Shown here: positions 1 to 3,000 of the stretch, piece after piece
How positions within the stretch are numbered: position 1 is the first letter of the stretch
How the letters are laid out: each line of letters opens with the position of its first letter
DNA from: a virus
Lineage: Duplodnaviria; Heunggongvirae; Uroviricota; Caudoviricetes
Strand: one strand, 5' to 3'
DNA length: 5,733 nucleotides
Virus record (IMG/VR): IMGVR_UViG_2698536574_000014
Made by a program: the position numbers

Positions 1-3000
1 CAGACTTTCTATCTCAACGCCATACGCTGCATTTTTTGTAACATCCGTCAGCGTCAGCGCATTCAGTCCCAGTGTCAGACTGTCTTTTATAACCTGGAAT
101 GCCGGGCCAGCCACTCCATTCAGTTTCGGAGTAACCGTGGCACTGCCGGCGGTGAACACCAGCTCCAGCGTCTGCCAGTCGTTACCGTAATCGCCGAACT
201 CCCCCAGCTTCGTGTTTCCGGCTTTCCTGTGATGCATCAGATTCACTCTGCCGTCAGTGGTCTGAGTGAAGTACGACATCAGGAACGGATTACCGGTACC
301 CGTCATCGCCACACCATCAGGAACGGGAGCATCCGTATACAGATAAATCCCCAGCCCGAACTGATTGTTGGTCAGTGCGCCTGACAGGCGGAACTTACAG
401 GTCAGTCTGCCGCCCTGTGTCAGCAGGGTAATTGCGTCATCCACCGGATGCGTCAGGGACCAGGTTTTATTGCTCTGCTTGGTGATCTTAAATACACCAT
501 CTGACAACTGAATTCCGCCATCCTTAATGCTCCAGCCCTGCGCAGCAGCCTCTCCGGCTGCCGGCAGCAGGGAGATTGTGCGAACGGACGTATCTGCAGA
601 CGGACCCGATGGCGTGTTGCCGCCGGGCGAGGGTTTGATTTCCGGTGCCTTACCACTGATGAAGGCTGAGGTGCGCCCGGCTGCGTTCAGAATAGCGGTT
701 GCCAGACGATCCGGAATAATGCTCCTGCGCGCCCATGAACTGAAATGTGTCGGGCGGTTTGATGATACCTGGTTTCCATTCGTTCTCGATGCCGCACCGT
801 AATATCCTGATGCCGGAATATCCGGATCTTCTGCCGGCGCGTTAGTGGCGGTATTGACGCCGTTACCGTCTGTCATGAAGGGCACAAAATAAACGCCCTC
901 ACTCTCCCTGTTTTTGTACGCCCCGTAAATGGTGTTGTACTGGGTGCCGTAGGTATTTTTCCAGTAATACGTCGTGTCACCACAAATCCACGGCACATCT
1001 GCAGCACTGCCACCATGGCACTGCGCGTTAAACACGGAGAGGTCAGCACGAAACTGTGTCAGCATGGCTGTAAACAGCGCAGGTTGCTGTGCGTGGGTGG
1101 CGGCGCTCATGTCAAACTCTCCCTGCATCCAGCACACCGCCAGCAACACATTTTTCGGGTTCTTCTGTAATGCAGCTTTGGTGCGCGCAATCAGGTCCTG
1201 ATATAACGGTTTACCCACACCCCAGCGCGCCGAATCCTGGCTGGCCCCCGTGTCCGCACTGAATGTCCCCTCCGCGCCCTGGGTAAATGCCGAACCACCA
1301 CGACAGCATGGTACCAGCAGGATCCCCGCGTTATTCGGGATATACGGGAGCAGTTTTTTGGCAATATGTAACCCCTGGCCGACACAGCCGTACTGCCCTT
1401 TGCTCAGGTCTGCCTTCGGATGATTCAGCGTACTCATATCCTGCACATCATGCAGGCAGTGGTCGGCCGGAATAATATCGTTATATCTGCAGGCAGCCCC
1501 ACCCGGCGTAACTGTACTGCGGCGCGCCAGCTGTTTANNNNNNNNNNNNNNNNNNNNNNNNNNNNNNNNNNNNNNNNNNNNNNNNNNNNNNNCGATGACG
1601 TAGTACCAATCCGGCTCAGTTGCACCACTGACCACCACATCACCTTCTGCTGTAATCGCCTGCATCAGGGTATAAGGGGTTATGGCCACCGGACTACCAA
1701 ACGGCTGCCAGCCCTCTTTCAGTTTGTGTGTCAGCTTTTCCGCAAGGTCTGACGGCGACGCCGCCCTGACAACATCATAATGTTTAAATGTCATTATTCC
1801 TCCCGGCCGGGATAGTGTATTAAATCAGATATGGAGTGGGCTGTAGTCCGGAAGCCTGAATGACACACGGGGACTACAGCCCGAAATACGAAAAAGGCCG
1901 CGCAGTTGCGCAGCCTTATGAATCCTGGTTAAAATCCGCACGATAAAAATGACAATGCAAGTATCTCATGCTGTTGCCCGAACCCACTCGGGCTTTTTTT
2001 TGCATGTAAAAAGGCTCCTGCGATGAGGAGCCTGGATATATGCCTAATCTCTGTATACAGCATGATGCCGGGTGCCTCCCGGTGAGTTCGGCCTGGTGCC
2101 ACCAAACCCGCGTATTCTCGCTTACGATCATCAAAGAGATCATACCGTTCACCAGTCGCCCCTCCGCACAGGGGGATTCACCATGCAGAAATTTTCTAAC
2201 ACATCTATTATCAGACCGGCAACAACTGACTGAATTGAGATGTATTTAACATTTATGAATCTCCGCCTGCTATTTTCACTGAGCTATTCTGAGTCAACGA
2301 AAAATAACTTCGCTGAATCCCCCTCCATTATGACAGGCATTAGTTTTAATGGTTACAGTCATCCCCGTAATTTGCGCACTGAGAAGAAGAGACTGAAGAT
2401 TCCATCTGTTGGTAAATAATTCTTTATCACCCACTTTAACTGTAAAGGTATCGTCATCATTATATTTTGTATACTCCACCTTTCCAGTTACACAATCAGG
2501 CGTCGCCAGCGCACTTGCTGAAAAAAATGAAAGCGATGCAGCTATTAATAATGTTTTTTTCATTTTACCCCCTCAACTGCTAATAGTTCTGCGCATCAGA
2601 ATTGCCCCCAGAGTGGATGAATCCCACAATATTTTATTGTGCGTAATCCCACGGACTCTTCCATCTGCCGGACACATAGAAGGAAACTCATCAGATGCCA
2701 TTCTGGCAACTCGCGATGCATGATGATGACAATTCAGTATTAATGCCACGCTTCCCAGAATTGCATTAATGCTTCCAAAAGAAATTCTTCCTACACGAAC
2801 AGAGTCTTGTCCATGATAGTCAGGCAGGACGCTACTCAACCTTCCCCAGTTCAATGTAAGATCAACATCTTCAGCAGTCATTACATAAGAACGCCCACTG
2901 AGATCATCCAGTGTTGTACGAAATCCCCTCTGTATTTGCCGAAAACGTAAAGCTTCAGCTGTCACAGTAACAAACCGTAACATCGCTCTTGCCACAGACT

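Follow-up and report, generated by a model that had tools for sequence, protein, structure and literature searches.

A terminator-like hairpin overlapping a putative sRNA promoter and a covarying RNA stem-loop precede the prophage esterase gene nanS-p

Introduction

What separates transcription that begins at stx1, or at the small RNA (sRNA) genes behind it, from the esterase and lysis genes that follow? Stx1 phages have a Fur-regulated promoter of their own (PMC7547250), and a convergent pair of sRNAs located 3' of stx was described by Tree et al. 2014 (PMC4104026), a study that includes mapped triphosphate 5' ends for the sRNA EcOnc03. The stretch of DNA analysed here, termed the window, comprises 5,733 nucleotides of a Caudoviricetes record (IMGVR_UViG_2698536574_000014). 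An earlier note on the window, made from its sequence, held that two tandem minus-strand terminators would block read-through from the stx1 promoter into the late genes, and that a perfect 12-bp inverted repeat in the leader of the esterase gene could be an RNase III or other processing site, a protein-binding site, or a translational control element.

Here we define two minus-strand structures upstream of the esterase gene nanS-p, a terminator-like hairpin (T2) and a stem-loop (H2), and report their conservation, their joint distribution among prophages of Escherichia coli, and the promoter-like hexamers that overlie T2 on the opposite strand. The reading that we favor, at a probability of a little over one half (about 0.55), is that T2 acts as a terminator whose DNA is shared with a promoter, and that H2 acts in cis as a structure of the minus-strand RNA.

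Results

Gene content of the locus

The 5' part of nanS-p, encoding a carbohydrate esterase of the SASA family, occupies positions 1 to 1794 of the minus strand (ATG at 1794-1792; a stretch at 1538-1593 is masked) and runs off the window; the same region, identical in sequence, is annotated in FJ184280 and NZ_AP018488, and esterase N-termini were also aligned. Upstream on this strand, Rfam model RF02076 recovered at full length the sRNA STnc100 (2002-2215; 190.7 bits, E = 7.7e-45), related to EcOnc27/PasD. Its own terminator, located by a terminator scan at 2012-2033 with a tail to 2002, has an 8-bp stem and a U-run of U4 only, and is the first of the two terminators in the earlier note. The anti-sRNA gene EcOnc03, of the AgvB/AsxR family, lies on the plus strand at 1941-2000 and by the same type of scan has a terminator of its own (1976-1993 plus T8). 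In Rfam it scored 56.6 bits with AgvB, against a gathering score of 56, and 46.8 bits with AsxR, and over bases 1947-1996 it matches exactly the EcOnc03 sequence given in the PMC4104026 supplement; its 5' end falls at 1941 by Rfam and at 1947 in the published sequence as printed. Throughout the conserved module the order is stx or tRNAs, STnc100 with its own terminator, the convergent anti-sRNA on the other strand, T2, H2 and nanS-p. The 1.1-kb region contains three terminator-like sites, versus 0.7 +/- 0.7 in shuffles. The unrelated leader of type C nanS-p alleles also has a terminator directly upstream of nanS-p. A 28-codon open reading frame of the plus strand (1860-1946), with GGAAG five nucleotides before its ATG, was rejected as a gene candidate: in the 933W-type sequence the shared segment is read in a different frame.

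Structure of the two hairpins

T2 occupies positions 1884-1917 of the minus strand, including a U-rich tail (U5 CGUAUUU). By consensus scan its stem (1917-1894) comprises ten pairs, seven of them G-C, around a loop of four, and is followed by TTTCGTATTT; read directly, the core is GGCUGCGC-AACU-GCGCGGCC plus U5 (the A-run 1891-1895 of the plus strand), and the feature, with a stem of 8-10 bp, is written in full as AAGGCUGCGC-AACU-GCGCGGCCUU. It folds alone at -18.3 kcal/mol and combines the features expected of an intrinsic terminator, namely a G+C-rich stem, a short loop, and a U-run immediately 3' of the stem; on paper it should be stronger than the STnc100 terminator. The consensus scan, the U5 run and the folding energy together confirm the second terminator-like hairpin that had been placed at 1886-1917. 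Its distance from the STnc100 terminator, previously put at about 90 nt, is 84 nt, and EcOnc03 is located in this gap on the opposite strand.

H2 occupies positions 1838-1882 of the minus strand, where the reverse complement of 1871-1882 forms the 5' arm, 1850-1870 the loop and 1838-1849 the 3' arm. The arms, 1838-1849 (GGGCTGTAGTCC) and 1871-1882 (GGACTACAGCCC), are complementary at 12 of 12 positions and stand 21 nt apart, without a U-tract, as had been noted; the interval to the esterase ATG, earlier estimated at about 45 nt, is 43 nt. For a perfect 12-bp inverted repeat within 80 nt, the expected number per window is 0.03, and 2.2% of first-order Markov simulations contain one. H2 alone folds at -27.2 kcal/mol and is also predicted by RNAalifold, and the structure prediction for a 146-nt minus-strand RNA contains both T2 and H2 (z = -4.5 versus shuffles). 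The hairpins are joined by a U/A-rich, single-stranded linker (UUUCGUAUUUC; 1883-1893, minus strand), which is U-rich in every lineage, ranges from 11 to 16 nt, and keeps this composition in the L010 and L011 types, whose T2 stem has decayed. Had a minus-strand promoter stood immediately before H2, it would have made H2 the primary 5' hairpin of a transcript; a scan of that position returned none, and inspection revealed no convincing hexamers. Searches of Rfam at permissive thresholds, with the window and with 1780-1930 alone, matched T2 and H2 only to sub-threshold, terminator-like entries (Leu_leader at 28 versus 50 bits; the 3' ends of SorY, suhB and OmrA-B).

Distribution

Of 5426 complete E. 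coli genomes, 1159 carry the segment with T2 and H2, at 3942 places and in up to 10 copies per genome. It is never annotated, and we found no description of T2, of its overlap with an anti-sRNA promoter, or of H2 in the literature. The unit is present in Stx2 prophages and also in non-Stx prophages, where it follows tRNAs and STnc100. In a scan of 120 loci H2 came after every true T2. A covariance model of H2 (R1), applied to 447 kb, gave a single strong match at each locus, in the esterase leader every time, and none elsewhere; with one copy per locus, a dispersed repeat of the REP or MITE-like kind was rejected. A scan of genome contigs yielded 8 loci only and added little.

Conservation and covariation of the stem-loop

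Covariation was assessed at 14 pairs in 39 distinct copies of H2, with 500 shuffles and a set of slid alignments as controls. Overall 89.2% of cells pair. Changes on both sides were seen at 8 of the 14 pairs; shuffles gave 2.5 +/- 1.2, with none of 500 reaching the observed value, and slid controls gave 0-3. Because the sequences are related and recombining, the shuffle control overstates significance; neither the slid controls nor the independent stem states depend on it. These states include U-A/A-U in the window type, C-G/G-C in type D, and U.G wobbles in the L010 type, and in L129 the basal pairs of the stem are A-U and U-A. The repeat is accordingly conserved with compensatory changes in relatives, which the earlier note had treated as a point on which its significance might fail. 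The perfect 12/12 stem is itself lineage-specific: in most relatives a U.U mismatch interrupts the upper stem and two further G-C pairs extend its base, and several (L037, L046, L047, L072) carry uncompensated mismatches in the upper stem. G.U combinations outnumber A.C by 80 to 9 cells, an asymmetry that assigns the structure to the minus-strand RNA. Loop length runs from 11 to 30 nt, and the sequence of the loop also differs among copies. Judged by this pattern of substitution, H2 is selected as an RNA stem and not for the sequence of its loop. It is absent from nanS-p alleles with type B and type C leaders, and is therefore not needed for expression of the esterase as such.

The ribosome-binding site and the loop of H2

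The earlier suggestion of translational control can be stated in a specific form, in which the pyrimidine-rich loop of H2 would pair with the Shine-Dalgarno sequence (SD) and start codon of nanS-p as an H-type pseudoknot stacked on the H2 stem, making esterase translation from an abundant late transcript lower or conditional. Several features invite it. In the window type, the loop sequences CUUCC and UGUCAUU can pair with GGAGG and AAUGACA, and in the 933W type UGCCAU and GUCCU with AUGGCA and AGGAU (-15.7 kcal/mol); the UGUCAUU match was also recovered as an inverted repeat of the window; CUUCC, conserved at 90% or more, directly adjoins the 3' arm in the manner of a classical pseudoknot; and all loop types are C/U-rich. 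A variable U/C of the loop pairs with a variable A/G of the second codon in 37 of 46 sequences, which are not independent of one another, and meets it as a C.A mismatch in the other nine, uncompensated, so that the association is weak. Against this, the pairing energies do not exceed chance: with RNAduplex and 300 dinucleotide shuffles per loop, loop-to-RBS pairing gave a mean z of -0.56 (p about 0.2-0.3), and no lineage reached p < 0.05. The loops of L129, L194, L010 and L011 reach only -3 to -9 kcal/mol, with weak or no complementarity, while the stem is kept; a change on the SD side in L007 is uncompensated; and the distance from H2 to the SD is about 33 nt in type A versus about 26 nt in type D.

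Prediction has most of the SD in base pairs, which would suit translational control. Its unpaired probability is about 0.25 in native leaders and 0.11 when the upstream region is shuffled, figures that can be read either way since the nested model excludes pseudoknots. RNAalifold predicts a small hairpin, UCCC-GGCC-GGGA (1801-1812, minus strand), that would occlude the 5' half of the SD (GGAGG, 1799-1803). Its stem never varies, and its loops are GGCC, GCCA, GACC, TGCC or GCCC, with GGAAA or TGAAA in type D; lacking covariation, it is a weak candidate.

A role for H2 in translation is possible, and we regard it as unlikely. A more elaborate form is less likely still: that H2 is an undescribed cis-regulatory RNA, present in several copies in about one fifth of E. 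coli genomes, whose C/U-rich loop docks on the SD and start codon of nanS-p as a pseudoknot stacked on the conserved stem, setting or switching translation on the Q-dependent late transcript, and that it might respond to a trans-acting RNA, given that EcOnc03 shares AAUGACA with the start region. The 7-bp match between this heptamer of EcOnc03 and the loop sequence UGUCAUU was considered separately and set aside as a probable coincidence, because the same loop occurs beside AgvB-type sRNAs and EcOnc03 occurs beside type D loops that lack the heptamer.

Overlap of T2 with a putative promoter

On the plus strand, a candidate promoter for EcOnc03 reads TTGCGC-N18-TAAAAT, with its putative -35 box (1906-1911) inside the 5' arm and loop of T2 and its putative -10 box (1930-1935) preceding the 5' ends of the sRNA (1941-1947) by 5-11 nt. 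The -10 box shares an alignment column with TATTAT of another spacer family, and the pattern TTGCGC-N18-TA[AT][AT]AT occurs in 25 of 25 distinct promoter variants, which represent two unrelated spacer families and are followed by sRNAs of at least three classes. The site thus has the anatomy of a sigma-70 promoter, for which one expects a hexamer spacing of 16-18 bp and a start site 5-9 nt downstream, and its hexamers are conserved while the spacer diverges. A promoter scan made no call at this site, since the -35 box matches the consensus at 3 of 6 positions (8 of 12 for both boxes) and the spacer is 18 nt long. The 5' arm and loop of T2 appear to double as the -35 box of the EcOnc03 promoter, an arrangement that would explain why one half of T2 is invariant while the other drifts.

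T2 was found in all 55 distinct leaders, and TGCGCAA, from its 5' arm and loop, is invariant in every one, whereas the 3' arm varies. Each pair of the 6-bp core is formed in 91-100% of leaders, most departures being from G-C to G-U, a measure confounded by the promoter overlap, as the 5' arm does not vary. No core pair has changed on both sides; changes in the 3' arm are one-sided, with some breaks, and are mainly C-to-U with G.U retained (78 G.U versus 10 A.C cells). The U-run is kept as U5-6 in about 50 of the 55 leaders, and that adjoining the stem is lost in the L010 and L011 types.

Conservation of the 5' arm could be explained by the promoter alone, and it might be argued that T2 is no working terminator at all, only a by-product of the opposite-strand -35 box and its flanks, with H2 hitch-hiking along with the promoter and the esterase allele. 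The confinement of invariance to TGCGCAA, the absence of two-sided change in the core, the conservation of the hexamers in all 25 variants, and the L010 and L011 types, which keep TTGCGC while losing the adjoining U-run, all accord with this. Against it stand the retention of the 3' arm and the U-run in most leaders, where they lie outside any promoter element, and the bias of 3' arm changes toward those that keep a G.U pair; moreover, the unrelated type C leader has its own terminator directly before nanS-p, and H2 covaries in its own right. We consider such an origin of T2 distinctly unlikely.

A tandem terminator pair, an RNase III site or a DNA operator

The original proposal joined the two terminators into a pair dedicated to read-through from the stx1 promoter and, as one option, made the repeat an RNase III site of the late transcript. 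Both terminators do lie on the stx1 strand within 84 nt, an Stx1 phage does have its own Fur-regulated promoter, and H2 is a stable stem lacking a U-tract. The second terminator-like site stands; the pairing does not survive in its simple form, because the first terminator belongs to the 3' end of an sRNA, a convergent sRNA gene is located between the two, and T2 and H2 also occur behind stx2 and in stx-free prophages downstream of tRNAs and STnc100. Classical substrates of E. coli RNase III comprise roughly 20 bp, about two helical turns. The H2 stem, with its large loop, has 12 bp in the window and a maximum of 14 bp in relatives, usually with the U.U mismatch, well below that length. Taken whole, this proposal is slightly less probable than the by-product reading of T2. 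Finally, the perfect 12-bp palindrome, which spans -59 to -103 relative to 1941 with 33 bp between the centres of its arms, could be imagined as an operator bound by a dimeric protein, its midpoint some 81 bp before the start of the anti-sRNA. Such action as DNA is very improbable, given that the arms of relatives are not DNA-complementary and pair as minus-strand RNA only, by the same G.U over A.C asymmetry (in the L010 type 7 of 12 positions are DNA-complementary and 12 of 12 pair as RNA), and that loops of such different lengths would shift the spacing of the half-sites.

Discussion

Under our favored reading, in which T2 is a terminator and H2 a cis-acting RNA structure, T2 would stop minus-strand transcription by polymerase not modified by Q, such as that from Pstx1 or that which continues from STnc100 past its weaker terminator, and would thereby shield nanS-p and the lysis cassette. 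Intrinsic terminators are read through by Q-modified RNA polymerase. The same would be expected at T2, and H2 would then be made only on read-through, late transcripts. As a tentative extension, possible rather than probable but the likeliest of the roles considered for it, H2 may mark a boundary of processing and stability: cleavage in the U/A-rich linker, a putative endonuclease entry site, would separate T2 from H2, so that the stx RNA would end in T2 and the nanS-p and lysis mRNA would begin with H2, each hairpin protecting the end on which it lies. Stem-loops at the 5' terminus reportedly stabilise E. coli mRNAs.

If T2 is a terminator, it is the last barrier between constitutive or iron-regulated transcription of stx1 and STnc100 and the esterase and lysis genes, and it bears on the question of why lysis does not accompany Stx1 that is made from its own promoter. 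Its overlap with a promoter would be a compact dual use of sequence at an abundant, Hfq-bound anti-sRNA, and would link late transcription to sRNA expression, because read-through driven by Q must cross the anti-sRNA promoter. H2 is an unannotated, covarying RNA with thousands of copies across pathogenic E. coli; should it govern how stable the nanS-p and lysis mRNA is, or how it is translated, it would affect the timing of toxin release and would deserve an Rfam entry. We regard T2 and H2 as real, fairly ordinary and hitherto unannotated wiring of phage gene control, which refines the map of a much-studied locus and leaves current understanding standing.

The closest described systems share the locus itself. 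EcOnc27/STnc100 and its partners AsxR, AgvB and EcOnc03 (PMC4104026) belong to the same module, the sRNA of the window being EcOnc03, and PasD/STnc100 lies directly upstream of the gene for a sialic-acid esterase in the account of Zhu, Shabalina and Storz (2026 preprint); both papers cover the two sRNA genes, and we found no description of T2 or H2 in either. Like the sdi stem-loop of lambda S and pseudoknots at ribosome-binding sites, H2 stands in the leader of a late gene and offers an anti-SD-like CUUCC and a complement to the start codon, beside a predicted local hairpin that partly covers the SD; it differs in lying 43 nt upstream without including the SD, and in a complementarity between loop and ribosome-binding site that is not above chance and is absent in some lineages. 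It resembles stem-loops of the ompA 5' UTR type in its stability (about -27 kcal/mol), in conservation of structure over sequence, and in having a U/A-rich strand and a 3' hairpin upstream, and differs from them in being internal to the primary transcript, about 100 nt into the intergenic leader, where a stabilising role is a prediction. T2, for its part, has the G+C-rich stem, short loop, U-run and late-strand orientation of the late-operon terminators of lambdoid phages (tR' and those downstream), and like them it stands between a moron (here stx and sRNAs) and late genes, with bypass expected only by Q-modified polymerase. It departs from these terminators, as one predicted from sequence, in that half of it overlaps a putative -35 box of the opposite strand, and from tR' in its position, some 2 kb downstream, after stx1B and STnc100.

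Genomic setting

The window covers the late region of an Stx1a prophage, whose genes lie on the minus strand, and shares 100% sequence identity with phage YYZ-2008 and many Stx1a-converting phages. Downstream of a NinG-like gene and then Q lie stx1A (3529-2573) and stx1B (2563-2294), followed after a 500-nt gap by nanS-p, a SASA-family esterase gene starting at ATG 1794. The esterase is absent from the ORF listing because a masked stretch of 56 N (1538-1593) interrupts its coding sequence. Relatives of its N-terminus (90% and 45% identity) come from two short contigs, one labelled Veillonella MAG and the other Xanthomonas pisi (L016, L017); the Veillonella contig probably reflects E. 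coli phage DNA contaminating the bin.

The gap contains a full-length STnc100 sRNA (EcOnc27/PasD-related; 2215-2002, minus strand; Rfam, 190.7 bits) and, on the plus strand at 1941-2000, an AgvB/AsxR-family anti-sRNA with its own terminator (Rfam and terminator scan), which matches the published EcOnc03 sequence exactly over bases 1947-1996 (Tree et al. 2014; PMC4104026). What the earlier note had taken for the first of two tandem terminators is STnc100's own (2033-2012); with the opposite-strand EcOnc03 gene between them, the two terminators are separated by an oppositely transcribed gene and are not a simple tandem. STnc100 begins 79 nt past the stx1B stop codon and, since our scan found no promoter-like site between the two, may arise as the 3' UTR of the stx1 mRNA, either in addition to a transcript from its own promoter or in place of one. 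The FJ184280 annotation places a 78-aa ORF, "conserved hypothetical protein" (ACI32377.1), at 1916-2152 on the minus strand (1647-1874 of locus L001); it is probably a spurious gene call, because it wholly overlaps STnc100 and the antisense of EcOnc03. A similar CDS is found in SH2026Stx1.

A predicted terminator overlapping a putative promoter

The second putative minus-strand terminator, T2 (1884-1917), is present as had been described: a consensus scan identified a terminator-like stem at 1917-1894 having 10 pairs (7 G-C), a loop of 4 and a U-rich tail, with an isolated fold energy of -18.3 kcal/mol. Three terminator-like sites occur in the 1.1-kb region, versus 0.7 expected. Among 55 distinct leaders gathered by protein-anchored and pattern-anchored scans, T2 with U5-6 is kept in about 50, with good terminator anatomy on the minus strand. 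TGCGCAA, comprising the 5' arm and first loop bases, never varies among the 55; changes in the 3' arm are mainly C to U, with G.U pairs retained, and in the L009, L010 and L011 types that arm has partly lost its pairing.

On the plus strand this unchanging part reads TTGCGC. After a spacer of exactly 18 nt comes TAAAAT or, in a second family whose spacer is unrelated, TATTAT; the sRNA 5' end lies 5-11 nt beyond. This pattern is kept in 25/25 distinct variants, before at least three different sRNA classes. We infer that T2 overlaps the -35 box of an anti-sRNA promoter having a weak consensus match (8/12 positions, 18-nt spacer), an overlap that, like the sRNA context, the earlier reading lacked. 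Five loci (L004, L007, L009, L010, L011) have small opposite-strand genes about 100-200 nt upstream of T2, behind a predicted TTGCGC-N18-TATTAT promoter; their terminators differ (GCCCGCGCTGGGAGACGCGGGC and GCCGCTCTTCCCAGGAGCGGC), Rfam recognized none of them at gathering score, and they may be further anti-sRNA classes.

H2 as a selected RNA stem

The perfect inverted repeat reported in the nanS-p leader is confirmed as H2 (1838-1882), with arms at 1838-1849 and 1871-1882 complementary at 12/12 positions, spaced 21 nt, and a fold energy of -27.2 kcal/mol. Perfect 12-bp inverted repeats within 80 nt are expected 0.03 times per window, and were seen in 2.2% of simulated windows. Structure prediction and covariation, both proposed as checks at the outset, bear out the hairpin: T2 and H2 form together in the predicted fold of the 146-nt minus-strand RNA (z = -4.5 versus shuffles), RNAalifold predicts H2, and across 39 distinct sequences standard pairs fill 89.2% of H2 cells and 8/14 pairs are changed on both sides, against 2.5 +/- 1.2 in shuffles (0/500 reach 8) and 0-3 in slid controls. 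On this comparative evidence, H2 is a selected RNA stem.

Several independent stem states all pair: the upper stem is U-A/A-U in the window's lineage and C-G/G-C at the same two positions in type D leaders, five pairs have turned into G.U wobbles in the L010 lineage, and two basal G-C pairs became A-U and U-A in L129. G.U cells outnumber A.C cells 80 to 9, which places the structure in RNA of the minus strand and neither in DNA nor in the opposite transcript. Perfect 12/12 complementarity is specific to a lineage: at pair 7 of the repeat most relatives carry a U.U mismatch, and their stems have two added basal G-C pairs. Some lineages have uncompensated upper-stem mismatches, so the lower 8 bp, which are 95% paired, are the part under strongest constraint. 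The loop (11 to 30 nt) is variable in sequence and C/U-rich throughout.

Distribution and leader types

The 91-nt T2-H2 segment occupies 3942 places in 1159 of 5426 complete E. coli genomes (median 3 and maximum 10 per carrying genome), with no RefSeq feature over it among the matches listed. It lies behind stx1, behind stx2, and in toxin-gene-free prophages with tRNAs and STnc100. The proposal that the terminators insulate the late genes from read-through unless Q is present keeps its logic, while its restriction to stx1 was an over-reading. In a 16-mer scan every copy of the T2 core with a T-run is then followed by H2, a single copy having an insertion inside the H2 loop. Across 447 kb of prophage DNA an H2 covariance model gave one strong match at each locus and none of similar strength outside these, ruling out a dispersed repeat. 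Two naturally disrupted copies, at L236 (about 13250-13346) and L023 (1103-1161), could be used as mutants; one is split by foreign sequence in the loop, and in the other 4 nt (CAGC) of the 3' arm are duplicated.

Alleles of nanS-p have at least four unrelated leader types, A and D with T2-H2, B and C without. Type D keeps both hairpins with a different spacer; in type C a different terminator stands just ~35 nt before the ATG, and a UUCC...GGGA hairpin covers the SD. The leader looks like a recombination hotspot; its variety is seen at L013, L039, L055, L061 and L041 (upstream of position 1201).

Possible functions of H2

We favour a stem-dependent, post-transcriptional role on the Q-dependent read-through RNA, because four features are conserved: the stem itself, its formation in minus-strand RNA, a constant position 11-16 nt past T2, and the U/A-rich linker (1883-1893), which remains U/A-rich even where T2 has decayed. 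After cleavage in the linker, stx RNA would carry T2 as a hairpin at its 3' end, and nanS-p and lysis RNA would carry H2 at the 5' end. To a processing and stability role through such cleavage we assign a tentative probability of about 0.3.

Translational control, in which the H2 loop would pair with the nanS-p ribosome-binding site, appears doubtful. In the window's loop CUUCC is complementary to GGAGG and UGUCAUU to AAUGACA, and in the 933W-type loop UGCCAU to AUGGCA and GUCCU to AGGAU, but the resulting duplexes do not outperform those of dinucleotide-shuffled versions of the same loops (mean z = -0.56), and short-loop lineages retain the stem without such complementarity. The sole candidate covarying position pairs in 37/46 sequences; the other nine have a C.A mismatch. 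Folding predicts a mostly paired SD in every leader; a local UCCC-loop-GGGA hairpin (1801-1812) masks half of it and, with constant stem and variable loop, is uninformative. The AAUGACA heptamer occurs in the EcOnc03 5' region (1948-1954, plus strand) as well as the nanS-p start region (1789-1795), both complementary to UGUCAUU of the loop (1859-1865); the EcOnc03 match is probably coincidence, since from locus to locus the kind of sRNA and the kind of loop show no covariation. RNase III, also suggested earlier, is unlikely to have a classical site in a stem of just 12-14 bp, and the wobble asymmetry and variable arm spacing speak against a protein-binding DNA operator.

Relation to known sRNA loci

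We found no published description of T2 or H2, and Tree et al. 2014 (PMC4104026) list no RNA at either. EcOnc03 scores 56.6 bits against Rfam AgvB, barely over the gathering score of 56, and 46.8 bits against AsxR, below its gathering score of 63. Its 5' variable "seed" is unlike those of both, and its sRNA target is therefore probably different from theirs; a literature search found no published target for EcOnc03. Convergent sRNA pairs have been described on the 3' side of stx2B and also within other lambdoid prophages (Tree et al. 2014; PMC4104026).
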